This document shows, in pieces, positions 21,971 to 43,309 of a DNA stretch of 64,000 bases. The position numbers were made by a program, and so were the translations under genes. Below the pieces are notes generated by a model that had not been told where the DNA came from, searched no databases, and saw only the letters and a program-made list of their open reading frames with translations. Source of the stretch: a virus (taxonomy: Duplodnaviria > Caudoviricetes); IMG/VR virus record IMGVR_UViG_3300028832_000095, positions 32,001 through 96,000 of that record; one strand, written 5' to 3'. Position 1 is the first letter of the stretch. Each line of letters starts with the position of its first letter.

Positions 21971-21999
21971 TTGACAAATCAAAAAAAGTATGTTATAAT
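21971..21999 (+). promoter_or_regulatory. Sigma-A-type promoter
   Basis: TTGACA-17bp-TATAAT with TG. Confidence 0.9.
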
Positions 22000-22061
22000 A
22001 TATTTACAGTAAAACACAGAAACCAAAAACCATAAAACCATAAAACAGGAGGAAAACGAAA

Positions 22062-22376
22062 ATGACTAACACAAAGACTTCCAATCAGGTAATCACCATT
22101 ACTGATACTGAACTTCTTAAAGTAGTTGAGGAGTATCAGTCCTACAAGAATCTCATTGACGAAGCTACGGCAATTGTCAAGGAACTTGGTGCTAAGATCA
22201 CCGAAGCCGTAGAAAACAGTGGAACAAATACAATCAATGTCGGATGCCACAAGGTATCGCTTTCTAAGTATACCAGAGAGAGTGTTTCGGCAAAGGATGT
22301 TAAAGCACTTGTTTCCGCAGAAGTCTTTGAGAAGTTAGTTTCAAGAACTATGACCACAAGGCTTACTGTGAAATAA
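22062..22376 (+). CDS. Hypothetical early protein
   Basis: Consensus promoter, AAACC-repeat leader, AGGAGG RBS. Confidence 0.7.
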   Translation: MTNTKTSNQVITITDTELLKVVEEYQSYKNLIDEATAIVKELGAKITEAVENSGTNTINVGCHKVSLSKYTRESVSAKDVKALVSAEVFEKLVSRTMTTRLTVK

Positions 22377-36988: not shown

Positions 36989-37525
36989 ATGGCTTACAAT
37001 TTTAATAAACAGGGTTATTCATTACAGGAAGTATCCCAAATTCTTCATTGTAGTTACAGTACCACTCTTAGGCTGGTAGACAGTGGGAATCTCAACGCTC
37101 TTATTCAGGACGAGCTTACTGAAGGTGGTAGACGTAGAATAAGAATTACTCGTGATCAGTTGATAGATTATATGAGAAGAAATAGGAATAAAATTGCTCC
37201 TGAAACATTGGAAGCATTTAATGCACTCGACACGGCTGCTGAGAATTCTAATAAGGAACAAAGCACATCTAATTGTTTTATAAAGGGAGCCACAACAGAA
37301 CCTTGTGGTGTTTGGGCATCCCTTTATAAAAAGGAGTCTAAAACAGAGGAACCAAAAACAGAGAAAACAAATACAATCAAGGATAAGAAAACGTGTTCAA
37401 TCCTTGTTAATGGGAGAATTTGTGTATCTAACATTCTTCCGGAAACAGCAAGGACTATTATGGATGCCTTATTGCAGGACACGAATATTTCAATGAATTC
37501 TTTAACAATCGAATTCAAATATTGA
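36989..37525 (+). CDS. Excisionase-like HTH_17 DNA-binding protein
   Basis: YSLQEVSQILHCSYSTTLRLVDSGNL..RIRITRDQLIDYM. Confidence 0.75.
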   Translation: MAYNFNKQGYSLQEVSQILHCSYSTTLRLVDSGNLNALIQDELTEGGRRRIRITRDQLIDYMRRNRNKIAPETLEAFNALDTAAENSNKEQSTSNCFIKGATTEPCGVWASLYKKESKTEEPKTEKTNTIKDKKTCSILVNGRICVSNILPETARTIMDALLQDTNISMNSLTIEFKY

Positions 37526-37585
37526 TTTGTATACTTTGTATAAAAACTCAATTAAAAATCTTTTCTATTTTTACATATATACATC

Positions 37586-37614
37586 TTGACAAAACAAAGA
37601 AAATATGTTATACT
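37586..37614 (+). promoter_or_regulatory. Sigma-A-type promoter
   Basis: TTGACA-17bp-TATACT. Confidence 0.85.
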
Positions 37615-37669
37615 ATATATGTAAGTTAAAGGAAATAAAAAACCTTATAAATACTGAGGAGGGTATAGT

Positions 37670-37843
37670 ATGCATCAGGATAATAGAGACTACTTCGACT
37701 CCAAAACTTATAAAGTGGATAACATAAAGAGTGAATTAATTTCCTTATCCTACGATCTTGAGGAACATGGTTTTGTCCGTAAAGCCAAAAGTCTCAGAAC
37801 TATCGTAGAGAAGTTGGAACAGTGGGAACATACAAAAAAGTGA
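37670..37843 (+). CDS. Small 57-aa protein (absent from the ORF track)
   Basis: Own promoter; GAGGAGG RBS; MHQDNRDYFDSK...EQWEHTKK. Confidence 0.65.
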   Translation: MHQDNRDYFDSKTYKVDNIKSELISLSYDLEEHGFVRKAKSLRTIVEKLEQWEHTKK

Positions 37844-37906
37844 TGTGTGGTCTTTTTGTAGATTGTTTTGTGTAACAAATAGAAATAAAAAAATTTCAAA
37901 AACTAC

Positions 37907-37935
37907 TTGACAAAAATGAAATAATATGTTATAAT
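37907..37935 (+). promoter_or_regulatory. Sigma-A-type promoter of the tRNA/ncRNA island
   Basis: TTGACA-17bp-TATAAT. Confidence 0.9.
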
Positions 37936-38054
37936 ACAATTACACTAAGATGTGAATTGTACTTCTTATAGGGTATGGAGAGGGAAGAAAAAACCTTAAC
38001 ACTCAGGTTTTTCTAAATCATATGTTTGGATTTAGTTTTTTGAGAGTGTATTGA

Positions 38055-38127
38055 GTACCAGTAGCTCAGTTGGTAGAGCATATCCCTTTTAAGGATAGGG
38101 TCAAGGGTTCAAACCCCTTCTGGTACA
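38055..38127 (+). tRNA. tRNA-Lys(UUU)
   Basis: Acceptor gtaccag/ctggtac; anticodon arm tatcc-ctTTTaa-ggata; TTC loop. Confidence 0.92.
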
Positions 38128-38134
38128 TTTTGAT

Positions 38135-38222
38135 GGATCCTTAGCTCAACAGGTTAGAGCCAGCGTCTTATAAACACTAGGCCCTTACAAGGTATATCTG
38201 GGTTCGAGTCCCAGAGGATCCA
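38135..38222 (+). tRNA. tRNA with UAU anticodon (Ile by anticodon) and a long variable region
   Basis: ggatcct/aggatcc; agcgt-ctTATaa-acact; 19-nt variable region; ctggg-ttcgagt-cccag. Confidence 0.8.
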
Positions 38223-38229
38223 CTCAAAT

Positions 38230-38302
38230 TACTCCGTGGTGAAGTGGTAAACACATACGGCTTTGACCCGTACATTCGTTGGTTCAAATCCAACCGGAGT
38301 AA
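38230..38302 (+). tRNA. tRNA-Gln(UUG)
   Basis: tactccg/cggagta; tacgg-ctTTGac-ccgta. Confidence 0.9.
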
Positions 38303-38309
38303 TTCTTTT

Positions 38310-38384
38310 CGGAATGTAGATCAGTTTGGCTAGATCGCCACATTTGGGATGTGGAAGTCGCAGGTTCAAATCCTGTCATTCCGA
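38310..38384 (+). tRNA. tRNA-Pro(UGG)
   Basis: cggaatg/cattccg; ccaca-ttTGGga-tgtgg. Confidence 0.92.
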
Positions 38385-38386
38385 TT

Positions 38387-38527
38387 ATGTAATATAAGTG
38401 CTCCGGTTTTATACTACCTTGACGCTAGATAGAGGTGGAGGAAGGTGTAACAGAGTTACTTAAAGCTATTGCCTTTGAAAATCCAAGCAGGAGTTAAATG
38501 GAGTTTGATGAACAGCTTATATTATAT
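38387..38527 (+). ncRNA. Putative structured ncRNA between tRNA-Pro and tRNA-Leu
   Basis: 13-bp closing stem atgtaatataagt/gcttatattatat; internal ctcc/ggag and ctacct/aggtgg helices. Confidence 0.45.
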
Positions 38528-38529
38528 AT

Positions 38530-38615
38530 GCTACTGTGATGGAATGGCAGACATGAAAGACTTAAAATCTTTTGCCGGATACGGTGTGCGGGTTCAAGTC
38601 CCGCCAGTAGCACCA
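38530..38615 (+). tRNA. tRNA-Leu(UAA)
   Basis: gctactg/cagtagc plus ACCA; aaaga-ctTAAaa-tcttt; variable arm. Confidence 0.92.
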
Positions 38616-38685
38616 ATCCTCAAATTGTTGAGGATTATGTCATTTTCGTTTTGTTGTCTCCTTTTTTACTAATCTTATCTTTTTA

Positions 38686-38874
38686 TTGTGGGAAAGTCAG
38701 CAGTACAAGAAACTATGTTTTAAAAAGAGTGCATTCTTCTTTTACATAGTTTATGATTTCTCCTGTTTCCGGATCAATCATACTCTTGTAAATTGAATAT
38801 TTATAAGTCGGATTTCCTGTCTCCATTAAAATCTATTGATTTTTAATATTCACGAAATACTGACTTTCCCGCAA
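38686..38874 (+). ncRNA. Putative multibranched ncRNA with two CCUGUYUCC loops
   Basis: 15-bp closing stem ttgtgggaaagtcag/ctgactttcccgcaa; inner helices tacaaga/tcttgta, aaactatgt/acatagttt, atgatt/aatcat, gaatatt/aatattc. Confidence 0.6.
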
Positions 38875-38890
38875 ACCTTATTTTCAGAAA

Positions 38891-39316
38891 GTGGTGTTGA
38901 AAGTGATACAACAAGAATCGTTACAAATTCCATGTGAAGGAATATTTTGGGTAATAGATAATTGCTTAGTCTATTTTGCAGATAAGGTAAATCCAAAAGA
39001 TCCTTATGATTCAACAGATCTTCTACATAAAGATACATGGAGAGAAATAAAAGACGAATATCTTGTAGACGGAAAACAGGTTTCCTTTGATTATTTTCCT
39101 CGTGGAAGAGTTGAAACATTAGTAATTCAAGATACTGACGGAACCTTAGATCACTATGAAGCGACTATATATTTAGATAAATGTATCAACAATAAAGAAT
39201 TGATCTCGGAGGTTATAGATACGTTTAGACTATACCTTCCAAATGTGAAGGTTGAAAATGGAGGTCAGTTATTTATAGATGGTAGTCACTATACTTGTAA
39301 TAAGTGTAGAAAATGA
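38891..39316 (+). CDS. Hypothetical phage protein within the tRNA island
   Basis: GIFW..H..TW..YFPRGRV..HY.C..C pattern. Confidence 0.65.
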   Translation: MVLKVIQQESLQIPCEGIFWVIDNCLVYFADKVNPKDPYDSTDLLHKDTWREIKDEYLVDGKQVSFDYFPRGRVETLVIQDTDGTLDHYEATIYLDKCINNKELISEVIDTFRLYLPNVKVENGGQLFIDGSHYTCNKCRK

Positions 39317-39319
39317 TAG

Positions 39320-39437
39320 GGAATCTTCGTTTAAAAGTGATTAGCAACCAAAAAGAAAGACTGAATTATCAGTTTAGTTAATCCGAAGACAGTTCCTGAT
39401 CAGAACTATGTAAGGTACAAACTTACAGATTCCACCA
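39320..39437 (+). ncRNA. tRNA-like RNA (118 nt) with CCA end and greatly enlarged D-arm region
   Basis: ggaatct/agattcc-A-CCA acceptor; gtaag-gtacaaa-cttac T-like arm; agttc-ctGATca-gaact anticodon-like arm. Confidence 0.7.
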
Positions 39438-39443
39438 ATATTT

Positions 39444-39516
39444 GCCGTGGTAGCATAAATGGATATGCAACATCCTTCTAAGATGTCAGATACGGGTTCG
39501 AGTCCTGTCCACGGTA
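39444..39516 (+). tRNA. tRNA-Arg(UCU)
   Basis: gccgtgg/ccacggt; acatc-ctTCTaa-gatgt. Confidence 0.88.
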
Positions 39517-39522
39517 TGTTAT

Positions 39523-39676
39523 GTAGGAGTGGCGCAAGAGGTAAGACACACCGGATATAGAATCCGGTGGAAGAATTAAACATTGGTGAGTTCGACTATA
39601 ACCTAGGATGATGTCAGAACAAAATGTCCCTTGTTTATGATATCCTGTGTAGGTTCGAATCCTACCTCCTACACCA
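39523..39676 (+). tRNA. tRNA-Leu(UAG)-like RNA with an 81-nt variable-region insert (154 nt)
   Basis: gtaggag/ctcctac-A-CCA; ccgga-taTAGaa-tccgg; gtagg-ttcgaat-cctac; insert at 39568-39648. Confidence 0.7.
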
Positions 39677-39804
39677 ATAAGTCCAGACCCAAACTCCGTA
39701 GAACAATATGGGGTTTAAACGGGGAAAAATAAGTGATTAGCTTATGGAGAAAGGTGGACGCACTTGATGACGGTTTGCAAGGGCTTTACGTCATCCACAA
39801 ATAT

Positions 39805-39877
39805 TCCCTGTTAGATCAATCGGTAGATCAACTGACTGTTAATCAGTGGGTTGCTGGTTCAAGTCCAGCACAGGGAG
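39805..39877 (+). tRNA. tRNA-Asn(GUU)
   Basis: tccctgt/acaggga; actga-ctGTTaa-tcagt. Confidence 0.92.
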
Positions 39878-39883
39878 TTCAGA

Positions 39884-40089
39884 TAAGAGTGTTTAGGTTT
39901 GTTGATTTAGACGTTCATTCTTATCACCTGTAAAAGTATCTTTTGGTTTTTCGGTTTGCGTTTCCATTGGTAGCCATGCAGGTGCCTCCTTTCTTAAAAA
40001 TCAACTGAGGAAACAACACCTTTGGTGAATGGTGTGAAATACACCAGGCTCTGTGAAAACATTTACCTCACTTTCTGTTTTCACAGAGC
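39884..40089 (+). ncRNA. Series of hairpins with anti-Shine-Dalgarno segments downstream of tRNA-Asn
   Basis: gataagagtg/cattcttatc; cat-N7-cctcctttc; perfect 14-bp stem gctctgtgaaaaca/tgttttcacagagc with loop tttacctcactttc. Confidence 0.5.
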
Positions 40090-40126
40090 TTTCCTAAATT
40101 ATATCAATATTTCGGAGATGATAGAT

Positions 40127-40615
40127 ATGCGTGAAGATCTTATTCTAAGACTTAATGATAACATAGAATATTTAGAGGAATTAAAAAAGGTGTTACAGGA
40201 ATCTAAACCATCTAATATCGTTTTAGATTATTATGAAACATCTTATGTCGATACAATTGCAGATCACATCTACAAACCTAGGGCAGTATTTGATATACCA
40301 GAACCTTGTGAGAAGTGTAATGGAACAGGCGTTATTCAAGTATCTTCCGATAAAGATATTCACTATAAAATGTGTGATTGTTTCTATTCAACAAGGAAGT
40401 ATGTTGTAGAACCCCTTGCAGTAAGATCCATTGTAGATGCCGAAACACCTTATTATATGTGTTTTGACGGACTTGATATTATTTGTATTCCAATTCAAAG
40501 CGTAAAGAATTCTTTTTGTGTTGAAGATGTATATAATGAATATTATTATAAGAATAAAGAGGACTGTGAGAAAGCCTGTGATTGCTTGAATGGGGGTTGT
40601 ATAAATGACAAATAA
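40127..40615 (+). CDS. Hypothetical protein with CxxC zinc motif
   Basis: CEKCNGTG..CDC. Confidence 0.6.
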   Translation: MREDLILRLNDNIEYLEELKKVLQESKPSNIVLDYYETSYVDTIADHIYKPRAVFDIPEPCEKCNGTGVIQVSSDKDIHYKMCDCFYSTRKYVVEPLAVRSIVDAETPYYMCFDGLDIICIPIQSVKNSFCVEDVYNEYYYKNKEDCEKACDCLNGGCINDK

Positions 40616-40946
40616 TAAAAACTCAACACGTTATTATAGTGACAGACATGAAAAAAGAACTGCTAAGAATATCGGCGCAAAGGTTCAAACAAGCAGCGGA
40701 TCAAGTTCTTTTCTAAAAGGTGATGTTATTTCTGCAAAATGTCTTATCGAGTGTAAAACAAGCACATCCGAGAAGAAATCATTTTCAATCAAAAAAGAAT
40801 GGTTGGAGAAGTTGGAAGAACAGTGTTTTGCAATGGGAAAGAAACATCCGATATTAGTGTTTGACTTTGGTGACGGTAATAATTACTACATTCTAAACGA
40901 ACAGATGATAAGGAAGTTTGTTGAATTTTTAGATGGTGAAGAATAA
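40605..40946 (+). CDS. PD-(D/E)XK endonuclease, Holliday-junction-resolvase-like
   Basis: HE..A, SGS...KGDV, LIECKT, SFSIKKEWL. Confidence 0.7.
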   Translation: MTNNKNSTRYYSDRHEKRTAKNIGAKVQTSSGSSSFLKGDVISAKCLIECKTSTSEKKSFSIKKEWLEKLEEQCFAMGKKHPILVFDFGDGNNYYILNEQMIRKFVEFLDGEE

Positions 40947-40952
40947 GAAAAT

Positions 40953-40982
40953 AAACCTTGCTAATTTTTAGCAAGGTTTTTC
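40953..40982 (+). terminator. Rho-independent terminator
   Basis: aaaccttgctaa-ttt-ttagcaaggttttt. Confidence 0.8.
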
Positions 40983-41002
40983 ATTTATTTTTTATAAAAC
41001 AC

Positions 41003-41071: not shown

Positions 41072-43309
41072 ATGGAAACATTGGCAGTAAAGTATAGACC
41101 TAAGACATTTGATGATATGGTAGAACAAAGTGTTGTAAAAGACATTTTGATGAATCATATTAAGGAGAAGAAAGTAAGAAATGGTTATCTGTTTAGCGGA
41201 AGCGCTGGCTGCGGAAAAGCACAACCTTTGTATAGCAAGGTACTAACTCCTAAAGGTTACATTGCTATGGGTGAGGTTTCTGAAGGAACAGAAGTTATAA
41301 CACATACGGGATCAGTTGCATCCGTTTCGGAAGTATTTCCACAGGGAGAACGTGACATTTATGAGATACAGTTTAGTGATAGAACAAGTATTCGTGTGGC
41401 AGATAATCACCTAAATGTTGTATATAGGTACAATCAAAATAAGAAAATGAGAGAAGATTTTGTATTAACAACAATGGAGCTTATAGAACTATTAAAAAAA
41501 TCTAAAGATAAGATTAGAGTTGACCTTCCTGTGGTTGACTTTGATAAGACGGATGTTCCAATTGATCCATATCTATTAGGTTGCTTAATAGGTGACGGAT
41601 CACTCCATAATAATTTTGGTTTTTCTAATTCAGAAAAAGATGTTATTGATAAAGTATCCGGTATAGTTAGTAAGTATGATTGTTGCTTAGTACACAAATC
41701 TGGTTGTGATTATGCTATAAGTAGAACAACAGATTCTTTTAAAAATTACTATGTTTTTGAAGGAATTACTTATAAAGGACCTTATAAATTGATTGATAGA
41801 CTTGTTGAATTGGGTTATCCGAAATTTGATTCTGAAACAATTTTACAATTATCTTGCAATAAGGCGAAGATTATAGTTTCTAGGTATCCTGAACTCATCG
41901 GTAAAATAACCAAGATAACCAATGAAAATTATAATCAGCAAAATAAACTTTTAACACTCATAAAGAATATGGGTCTTGACGTTGGATCTAAGGACAAATT
42001 TATACCGAAAGAATATCTTATAAATGATGCCAATACAAGACTTCAAATTTTACGAGGTCTTTATGATACCGATGGATATACATCGTCTGGTGGGGAAACA
42101 AGTTTCTCCACATCTAGTAAAAAACTGTCCGATGATTTTGCTTTTTTAGTTAGATCTTTGGGTTGTCGTGATACGGTTATTGTTAAAAAATGTGGATACA
42201 GAAATCCAAATGGTGATTATGTAGAGTGTAGCAATAGTTATGAGCACTATATTAAATTTCCAAATAATTTAGTATATTGTTCTTCTGAAAAACATTTAGC
42301 TAGACGTAAAGAAAGACAACACGATCCAATCAAGAGTATTGTAGATATTAAATATGTAGGAAAAGAATTTTGTCAGTGTATTTATGTAGATCATGAAGAT
42401 CATACATACATTTCGGATGATTTTATTCCTACACATAATACAACCTCGGCACGTTGTTTCGCAAAGAGTCTTAATAGTTCTATAACAGAGCTTGACGCAG
42501 CTTCCCATAGTAGTGTGGATGATGTAAGGGATCTTATTAAAGATTCAAGACTGAAACCGATGGGAACTGATTATAGAGTATACATCATAGATGAAGCGCA
42601 TTCGCTTAGTAATCAGGCTTGGCAAGCTCTACTCAAGACATTGGAAGAGCCAACACCAACAAGCATTTTTATTTTTGCTACAACAGATCCTCAAAAAATT
42701 CCAAATACAATTTTATCCAGAATTCAAAGGTATAACTTCAAAAGAATTTCACATAAAGGAATTGTAAACAGATTAAAATACATACTTGATTCTGAAAATA
42801 AGAATGGTTGTAACTATACATATACCGAAGATGCCATTGATTATATCGCAAAATTATCTGAGGGTGGTATGAGAGATTCCATAACACTTATGGAGAAGTC
42901 ATTAGGTTATTCTGATAATCTTACAATGGAATCTGTAACAAAGGCTCTCGGAACTGTTGACTATGAAACAATGTTCACACTCACGGACAGCATTTATAAT
43001 ATGGACAGAAAATGTGTTATTTCGTGTATTGAGGAAACACATAGGGAAGGTCTTGATCTAAAACAGTTTATCAAGAATTATAGCTTTTTTGTTCTTGACC
43101 TTTGTAAATATGATGTATTTAGGTCTTTTGAGTATCTTCAGATGCCGAATACATATGAAGATAGGATGAAGAAGTATACACCAGATCACTATAAGTTCTT
43201 TACAGACTTACTCAATACAGTAATGCAACTCAATACAGATATTAAATGGGAATCTACTCCGAAGCCACTTATTGAATCAACACTTGTTCTTCTTTGTTCG
43301 GAGGGGTGA
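41072..43309 (+). CDS. dnaX: Clamp loader gamma/tau subunit with intein
   Basis: LAVKYRPKTF, GCGK|TTSAR, ELDAAS, IIDEAH, LLKTLEEP, TILSR, GGMRD. Confidence 0.93.
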   Translation: METLAVKYRPKTFDDMVEQSVVKDILMNHIKEKKVRNGYLFSGSAGCGKAQPLYSKVLTPKGYIAMGEVSEGTEVITHTGSVASVSEVFPQGERDIYEIQFSDRTSIRVADNHLNVVYRYNQNKKMREDFVLTTMELIELLKKSKDKIRVDLPVVDFDKTDVPIDPYLLGCLIGDGSLHNNFGFSNSEKDVIDKVSGIVSKYDCCLVHKSGCDYAISRTTDSFKNYYVFEGITYKGPYKLIDRLVELGYPKFDSETILQLSCNKAKIIVSRYPELIGKITKITNENYNQQNKLLTLIKNMGLDVGSKDKFIPKEYLINDANTRLQILRGLYDTDGYTSSGGETSFSTSSKKLSDDFAFLVRSLGCRDTVIVKKCGYRNPNGDYVECSNSYEHYIKFPNNLVYCSSEKHLARRKERQHDPIKSIVDIKYVGKEFCQCIYVDHEDHTYISDDFIPTHNTTSARCFAKSLNSSITELDAASHSSVDDVRDLIKDSRLKPMGTDYRVYIIDEAHSLSNQAWQALLKTLEEPTPTSIFIFATTDPQKIPNTILSRIQRYNFKRISHKGIVNRLKYILDSENKNGCNYTYTEDAIDYIAKLSEGGMRDSITLMEKSLGYSDNLTMESVTKALGTVDYETMFTLTDSIYNMDRKCVISCIEETHREGLDLKQFIKNYSFFVLDLCKYDVFRSFEYLQMPNTYEDRMKKYTPDHYKFFTDLLNTVMQLNTDIKWESTPKPLIESTLVLLCSEG
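41219..42439 (+). mobile_element. Ala1 intein (407 aa) with LAGLIDADG endonuclease in the DnaX Walker A
   Basis: Starts AQPLYSKVLTP, ends CQCIYV...PTHN followed by Thr; YLLGCLIGDG and LRGLYDTDG motifs. Confidence 0.9.

Follow-up and report, generated by a model that had tools for sequence, protein, structure and literature searches.

Small stable RNAs that are not transfer RNAs (tRNAs) were found in a phage tRNA cluster decades ago: RNAC and RNAD of coliphage T4 (the species 1 and species 2 stable RNAs) are about 120-140 nucleotides (nt) long and of unknown function (PMC3014915, PMC9697503). The locus described here is a tRNA island of an uncultured phage of about 200 kb (IMG/VR record IMGVR_UViG_3300028832_000095; 201,895 bp, estimated 84% complete), bases 32001-96000 of which make up the 64,000-nt stretch analysed and are called the window. 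The island runs on the plus strand from a promoter at 37907 to the gene that starts at 40127. Sequence comparison shows that three units placed between its tRNA genes, unit A (38390-38524), unit D (39320-39437) and, more weakly, unit E (39523-39676), are conserved folded RNAs of the tRNA strand, and that the trailer behind the last tRNA (39882-40126) is a conserved structured leader of the next gene. With moderate confidence, the island is read as an early tRNA operon in which, as in T4, small stable RNAs other than decoding tRNAs are encoded too; these would be cut out by tRNA-processing enzymes and act as protein-binding mimics, and the CCUCC of the trailer would serve as a switch in cis. 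An earlier note on this DNA had proposed an undescribed system, which cannot be upheld since T4 RNAC and RNAD have long been known in a tRNA cluster (PMC3014915). What is new is four RNA families absent from Rfam and with comparative support, one of them large; the kind of system is already known.

T4 RNAC and RNAD are the closest precedent, and T4 provides one both for extra stable RNAs in a tRNA cluster and for sequestration of a Shine-Dalgarno (SD) sequence. Like the island RNAs they are small, lie on the same strand among phage tRNA genes and adjoin an embedded protein gene, and rnaC combines a canonical T arm with paired ends, as in units D and E. They differ in that units D and E encode CCA and bear one giant arm, while unit A is not tRNA-like; the host of T4 is E. 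coli, whereas that of this phage is probably a member of the Firmicutes. When the T4 tRNA region was searched, filters off, with the model of unit D (R2, the one model applied to it), 3.3 bits were obtained over rnaC and nothing over rnaD. YrlA RNAs (RF02553; PMC4201824) are also alike in joining a tRNA-like module to a long protein-binding stem, in occurring in phages and in being handled by tRNA enzymes, but the helix that joins the two ends of units D and E is a genuine acceptor stem with CCA and not a Ro-binding stem. ROOL, GOLLD and drum are large to mid-sized structured RNAs of phages and prophages, of unknown function and found beside phage tRNA arrays, and ROOL and drum share loci with relatives of unit A; none of the three has a match inside the window, however, and at 118-154 nt units A, D and E fall far below them in size. 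Class II tRNA-Leu has the acceptor stem, Leu-type D arm, anticodon stem and T arm seen in unit E, but a variable arm of roughly 10-25 nt against about 81 nt in unit E, which lacks U33 and has a varying loop. For the trailer, the counterparts are the leaders of T4 genes e, soc, 49 and I-TevI, in which the SD is sequestered by an upstream pyrimidine tract (PMC3014915). As in these leaders and in the expression platforms of riboswitches, translation of the gene behind the trailer is predicted to depend on the fold; unlike the T4 leaders, the trailer has a conserved four-way junction between putative anti-SD and SD, with an 18-nt block invariant in most copies, which suggests a bound factor or ligand.

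Conserved folded RNAs between the tRNA genes

Relatives of the island were collected by protein-anchored searches (with the resolvase and with a 137 amino acid protein embedded in the island), which gave about 20 contigs of the same clade, of rumen- or gut-type metagenome origin. All of them carry a tRNA island at the equivalent location with the 137 amino acid gene embedded in it; the tRNA sets vary greatly, as does the content of the spacers, and several of the islands hold HNH endonuclease genes. Conserved and unconserved spacers were sorted by running blastn and nhmmer with each unit of the window against the relatives' loci, and folds were scored (z) against dinucleotide shuffles. The earlier note had named five spacers as folding with their ends paired. 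Four of the five fold better than shuffles, namely 38387-38527 (z -1.65), 38686-38874 (z -6.8), 39754-39798 (z -2.3) and 39884-40089 (z -3.5); paired ends were recovered in the first two (closing stems of 13 and 14 bp), the third contains a 7-bp hairpin, and the fourth is not a single fold but a row of separate hairpins and a four-way junction. The fifth, 38631-38675, folds no better than shuffles (z +0.8). A cmscan of Rfam 15 to E = 10 assigned no family to unit A, unit D, the 189-nt element at 38686-38874 or the trailer, the matches in those stretches being scattered, chance-level ones (small nucleolar RNA, long non-coding RNA and CRISPR-repeat models) far under the cut-offs. The broader proposal that several non-canonical structured RNAs lie among the tRNAs is borne out by covariation in unit A, unit D and the trailer, and more weakly in unit E.

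Unit A comprises a closing stem (P1), GGUGC, a second helix (P2), a variable inner domain, the conserved block GUUAAAUGGA and a GUUY-GAN-GAAC hairpin. Its ends pair through the 13-bp stem already mentioned, and the unit is conserved although its z-score is low. Matching sequences occur in the relatives L047, L049 and L048, and one helix changes across relatives from GCUCC/GGAGU through GCCCC/GGGGU to GCCA/UGGU. A mini open reading frame (ORF; MEFDEQ..., at 38500) within unit A has an apparent SD formed by the second strand of this helix (GGAGU, GGGGU or UGGU), and both were ruled out because that strand covaries. With a 21-nt pattern from the conserved 3' block, matches were obtained in 108 IMG/VR contigs, 49 of which were used to build model R3; this model matches unit A itself with 80 bits (E-value 4e-15) and gave 125 matches, 92 of them distinct, in 100 IMG/VR loci on large gut or rumen phage contigs. 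In an alignment fitted to R3, 93.3% of the cells of P1 and P2 are paired, compared with 26-48% when the partners are slid, and 252 cells are compensatory against 87.5 in shuffles; the covariation of P1 is already evident in the MAFFT alignment. Invariant U-G and G-U pairs assign the family to the tRNA strand. tRNAs are present in 37 of 44 loci with unit A relatives, the nearest at a median distance of 27 nt. In eight loci the motif is free of any overlapping Rfam family, and the same holds for a typical member at E <= 10. On the strength of the R3 matches, the covariation, the proximity to tRNAs and these Rfam negatives, unit A is assigned to a large and hitherto unclassified small-RNA family of phage tRNA arrays that is absent from Rfam.

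Fifteen loci have at least two copies of the unit A family and ten have at least three; in L245, L193, L273 and L255, three diverged copies lie within 1-2 kb of one another as small paralogue arrays. Other RNAs that adjoin tRNA arrays in loci with unit A relatives are ROOL (three loci), drum, transfer-messenger RNA and a group I intron (L226 7641-8241; L225 5041-5620; L198 4687-5103 and 4198-4291; L230 12249-12700 and 3037-3355).

Unit D, a tRNA-shaped RNA that starts three bases past the stop codon of the 137 amino acid gene, is matched by model R2 in eight phages (E <= 1e-13), and its region folds well (39320-39440, z -3.8). The predicted cloverleaf opens with an acceptor stem of 7 bp and, at the position of the D arm, a giant arm of about 69 nt that bears an invariant A-rich loop of the ACCAAAAAGAAA type; a 5-bp arm with the loop CUGAUCA, a 5-bp T-like arm and A-CCA follow. 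Compared with relative L046, 36 of 36 pairs are kept, nine of them through double changes; across the eight phages, in an alignment fitted to R2, 26 of the 36 pairs are compensatory and 97.6% of the cells are paired. G1-C72, A73 and CCA are present in all eight copies, and six of the seven acceptor pairs show compensatory changes, so that acceptor stem, discriminator base and 3' CCA all have the form of a tRNA. The rest of the molecule is not that of a decoding tRNA: there is no D arm, the loop of the T-like arm is GUACAAA, and L185 and L049 carry a different arm in place of the anticodon-like one. CUGAUCA is retained in six of the eight copies; given the swap in the other two, it is not an anticodon under decoding constraint. 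Unit D has no match to the Rfam tRNA model and is not called by ARAGORN. R2 weakly matches tRNA-Ile(UAU) (29.5 bits), which suggests that unit D descends from a tRNA. Outside the clade, an IMG/VR pattern gave 89 stretches, none confirmed by R2, a stricter pattern gave none, and R2 found no match in the 100 loci with unit A relatives.

Unit E is a tRNA-Leu-derived RNA with an insertion of about 81 nt in the variable arm and an encoded A-CCA. A permissive Rfam scan gave an eighth tRNA-model match here, in addition to the seven canonical tRNAs, over 151 nt at 39523-39673 (RF00005; 29.9 bits, where the cut-off is 29), which covers model positions 1-71 and includes a large insertion. The scan brought up no further credible family, and ARAGORN did not call unit E. 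The region 39524-39673 has a z-score of -2.5. Unit E is found in three phages, aligning with L004 and L046 at about 80% identity, and its insertion is the best-conserved portion. Changes in the acceptor and D stems are compensatory and the D arm is Leu-like; over the three sequences, 7 of 45 pairs are compensatory and 94% of the cells are paired. A73-CCA is encoded in two of the three copies (window and L046), which therefore combine acceptor stem, discriminator base and CCA in tRNA-like fashion, and L004 has no encoded CCA. The anticodon loops read UAUAGAA in the window, AAGGGA (6 nt) in L046 and AGCAGGC in L004; the loop is neither conserved nor U33-bearing in any copy, unlike that of a decoding tRNA. 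An IMG/VR pattern yielded three new loci, none of them a true relative, and no further relatives of unit E were found.

Units D and E are the two CCA-ended tRNA look-alikes with giant arms that the earlier note had recognised. In the aligned sequences both retain the acceptor stem and the T arm of a tRNA; neither has a conserved anticodon any longer, and each has acquired a single giant arm. Between them lies tRNA-Arg(UCU) (39443-39517) in the window and tRNA-Gly(UCC) in L046 (3133-3204), both units being retained in L046 although the intervening tRNA differs.

The structured leader behind the island

The layout of the trailer is common to 13 loci: a hairpin, a variable hairpin, CCUCC, an A-rich linker, a four-way junction, AAAA, an SD and a gene. 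The first hairpin (39882-39925) directly follows the last tRNA and carries the apical sequence GUUUGYWGRUUUAGA; in nine phages its stems differ yet remain complementary, as judged from per-sequence folds (RNAalifold on a misaligned MAFFT alignment yielded no pairs). The variable hairpin (39925-39989) adjoins the CCUCC at 39985-39989, which is invariant in all 11 leaders compared. The junction (40008-40095) is built from P1, a CACC-UUU-GGUG mini-hairpin that lies within the invariant AACAACACCUUUGGUGAA block, P2, which ends in a loop of the GAAA type, and P3, which is long. It is followed by the SD (40114-40117) and, from the ATG at 40127 to 40615, the gene for a 162 amino acid protein with a coiled coil and four invariant Cys residues. 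The gene after the junction is always the same in the 13 loci gathered with model R1 (about 165-180 amino acids); fold searches with the 162 amino acid protein gave no recognisable match. In the window this gene heads a module with a resolvase and a clamp loader.

The junction has 27 pairs, 19 of which are compensatory, and 97.7% of its cells are paired, a value reached in none of 500 shuffles and compared with 31-46% in slid controls; it includes the 18-nt block identical in most copies. An invariant G-U pair places it on the plus strand, and R1 finds it once in the phage genome. No Rfam riboswitch or T-box matches the trailer. Minimum-energy folds were predicted for 10 homologues, and in 8 of these the junction is enclosed by a helix between CCUCC and the downstream SD.

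A size-fractionated RNA library from bovine gut, whose contigs total 31 million letters, contains a 151-nt contig identical to 39910-40060, which is weak evidence that the trailer is transcribed; apart from two pieces of other organisms' tRNA-Asn, the rest of 37000-41000 is uncovered in that run, where gaps are uninformative.

A minus-strand ORF under the trailer (39995-39924, GGAGG-N7-ATG) has an SD and ATG in 8 of 11 relatives, with unrelated peptides of 7-20 amino acids; it was rejected as a gene, the G-U pairs setting the junction on the plus strand. A loose metagenome pattern for the trailer core returned 120 stretches, which are chance matches in coding DNA.

Promoter, tRNAs and the remaining spacers

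The island is headed by a consensus sigma-70 promoter (37907-37935, plus strand; TTGACA-17-TATAAT, 12 of 12 hexamer positions and a TG extension), as the earlier note had said, and similar promoter blocks recur several times in the relatives. A second, near-consensus promoter (TTGACA-17-TATACT with TG, 37586-37614) lies 320 bp upstream of it. The leader 37940-38054 has no conserved counterpart among the relatives. Seven canonical tRNAs, on which ARAGORN and Rfam agree, span 38055-39878: Lys(UUU), Ile(UAU), Gln(UUG) and Pro(UGG) at 38055-38385 (55-74 bits against the Rfam tRNA model), Leu(UAA) with encoded CCA at 38530-38615, Arg(UCU) at 39443-39517, and Asn(GUU), the last, at 39804-39878. tRNA-Ile(UAU) (38135-38223; 89 nt) has a long variable arm that is paired in class-II-like fashion, and its anticodon stem contains a C-A mismatch; its counterparts in L045/L046 and in L004 are 99% and 81% identical, respectively, and the Ile(UAU) tRNAs of other relatives are shorter (76-80 nt). 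At one syntenic slot in L005 (2937-3009), L006 (3055-3127) and L049 (1375-1447), ARAGORN calls a tRNA with the anticodon ACA, CUA or UCA; CUA and UCA read stop codons, and the slot looks like a single scaffold exchanging suppressor anticodons.

One credible protein gene had been noted in the island, and the sole conserved one is indeed that of the 137 amino acid phage protein (38903-39316), which belongs to a family of 37 clusters. Its predicted structure has a predicted local distance difference test score of 89.5; no Pfam or PHROG family matches it, fold searches gave no match (best Z 4.3), and the ESM Atlas gave none that was usable.

Downstream of tRNA-Leu, 38615-38675 has the make-up of an intrinsic terminator as predicted from its sequence: a GC-containing hairpin at 38615-38636 (9-bp stem, 3 GC pairs) and then a U-rich tract. 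Behind the tRNA-Leu of relative L004 the hairpin is another one, and the U-rich tail is the same. The 45-nt spacer 38631-38675, proposed to fold with paired ends, is the tail of a putative terminator and is not supported as a structured RNA. Positions 38639-38652 within it are an exact 14-nt complement of the SD-to-start region 22053-22066; the gene that starts there is the first one downstream of another consensus -10 element (21993-22000).

The 189-nt element (38686-38874) folds best of all the spacers, with its 14-bp closing stem, two inner domains and -54.2 kcal/mol; none of 200 shuffles was as stable. A MITE-like mobile element would be expected to have terminal inverted repeats and several copies. 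The 189-nt element has imperfect inverted ends of 26 nt but occurs once in the phage genome, and no relative was found in the clade contigs, the rest of the phage genome or GenBank phages. It is read as a lineage-specific insertion, which comparison does not support as an RNA.

Just before tRNA-Asn lies a hairpin with the 16-nt loop GUUUGCAAGGGCUUUA (39766-39795), whose stem is wholly exchanged in L046 for a complementary one while the loop is identical. This loop and that of the hairpin at 39882-39925, GUUUGUUGAUUUAGA, are related, and the two hairpins flanking tRNA-Asn may be two sites for a single factor.

All sizeable ORFs of the window are on the plus strand. The island is flanked by a helix-turn-helix protein gene on one side and, on the other, by the module of the 162 amino acid protein, a Holliday-junction resolvase and an intein-bearing clamp loader. 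By clamp loader, the nearest cultured phages infect Clostridium, Streptococcus and Bacillus, at an identity of only 25-42%; the phage is probably one of Firmicutes. The clamp-loader gene (41072-43309) holds a LAGLIDADG/Hom_end intein, which is present also in L050 and L051 and absent from L048 and L049.

Possible functions of the island RNAs

In the T4-like tRNA operon proposed here, RNase P and the 3'-end enzymes that mature the adjacent tRNAs would also excise the additional RNAs from the precursor. Once released, these would act as protein-binding tRNA mimics and not as decoders, their giant arms and conserved loops being the functional parts. The CCUCC of the trailer would pair with the SD of the downstream gene, whose 162 amino acid product is a putative zinc-ribbon protein, across the four-way junction, and translation of the first replication-module gene would be switched in cis by this pairing.

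Several points weigh against this proposal. The pair counts of units A and D come from alignments fitted to R3 and R2, respectively, which biases them towards structure; the case for unit E as a conserved folded RNA is real but thin, with three sequences, and the hairpin before tRNA-Asn was compared in two. The terminator-like site at 38615-38636 sits mid-island and may split it, for which reason a single transcript of 2.1 kb is uncertain. Fold searches with the 137 and 162 amino acid proteins named no partner protein. As to the switch, the CCUCC-SD helix of the window is only 4 bp long and L004 and L043 fold otherwise; moreover, an SD precedes nearly every gene, so that only the CCUCC side is informative and covariation at the SD is impossible. 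Lastly, the 151-nt RNA contig could derive from contaminating DNA.

Two other explanations are unlikely, and about equally so. According to the first, which includes the translation-silencing small RNAs of the earlier note, the spacers are trans-acting anti-SD RNAs that shut off translation of mRNAs of the host or the phage, and the tRNA look-alikes act as decoys, drawing off host defences that target tRNAs. The invariance of CCUCC in the trailer is in keeping with such RNAs, but this motif stands in the leader of a single gene and is predicted to pair in cis with that gene's own SD in most homologues (the 8 of 10 given above); CCUCC also stands in loops of the 189-nt element, for which no relatives were found. 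The 14-nt complement at 38639-38652 likewise speaks for antisense action, a search allowing up to one mismatch having given a mean of 0.10 matches in shuffles; it lies, however, in the terminator tail, and L004 does not retain it exactly: there, the only complementarity between the tail and the start region of the orthologue is A/U-rich and in another register. The 45-nt spacer is thus not sustained as an antisense RNA. Phage tRNAs counter anticodon nucleases, which lends the decoy idea some appeal, but the anticodon-like loops of units D and E, by which such nucleases would recognise them, are not conserved. The mechanism put forward in the earlier note, anti-SD small RNAs acting in trans together with decoys, is not supported.

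In the second, units D and E, and possibly A, are scaffolds like Y RNAs, the long arm binding a ring-shaped or other RNA-binding protein as YrlA binds Ro60. Their architecture, a tRNA-like top half with one long conserved arm, agrees with this, as does the presence of YrlA-type RNAs in phages (PMC4201824). The phage record, at its estimated 84% completeness, nevertheless has no TROVE/Ro60 gene, and the Rfam YrlA model does not match A, D or E; its sole match (22 bits, cut-off 69) falls over canonical tRNAs, and a typical unit A relative has none even at E <= 10.

Less probable still is that units D and E are unusual working tRNAs, charged and decoding, E as tRNA-Leu(UAG) and D as tRNA-Ile(GAU). 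Both have acceptor stems and T-type arms, with A73 and CCA in all D and two of three E copies; the D arm of E is of Leu type, and its loops hold UAG (window) and CAG (L004), both Leu anticodons, while for unit D the CUGAUCA loop in six of eight copies and the weak R2 match to tRNA-Ile(UAU) point the same way. Against decoding stand the missing U33 of unit E and its 6-nt loop in L046, the absence of a D arm, the pyrimidine at position 37, the non-canonical T loop and the replaced anticodon arm (L185, L049) of unit D, and the silence of ARAGORN on both.

It is very improbable that the spacers as a whole are neutral debris, that is, decayed tRNA genes, scars of homing endonucleases and chance folds in AT-rich DNA. 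The great differences in tRNA sets and spacers among relatives, the HNH endonuclease genes in several islands and the want of conserved counterparts for the 189-nt element, the leader 37940-38054 and the 45-nt spacer would all be expected of debris, but the compensatory changes in unit A, unit D and the trailer are far above shuffled and slid controls, and this explanation is tenable only for 37940-38054, 38631-38675 and perhaps 38686-38874.

Equally improbable is a coordinated RNA system in which units D and E, as non-decoding RNAs of tRNA shape, would be matured in the manner of tRNAs and end in CCA. Their 3' ends (C72-A73-C74-C75, that is, CACC) would be sensed by the invariant GGUG of the junction, normally paired with an internal CACC mimic, in a T-box-like control of the SD of the first replication-module gene, unit A being a separate class of phage ribonucleoprotein RNA; if true, the onset of phage DNA replication would be coupled to the condition of these tRNA-like RNAs.

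To the extra stable RNAs of phage tRNA clusters, known since T4 and without known roles for decades, this island adds four families that Rfam lacks and that comparison supports. The unit A family is abundant, with at least 92 distinct copies on about 100 large gut or rumen phage contigs and three copies in some phages. Units D and E show tRNA genes remodelled into what appear to be non-decoding RNAs through one giant arm, and the trailer is a candidate translational switch before a phage replication module. Together the units offer concrete, clonable targets for asking what non-tRNA RNAs do in phage tRNA arrays, a question that is the same for ROOL, GOLLD and T4 RNAC and RNAD.

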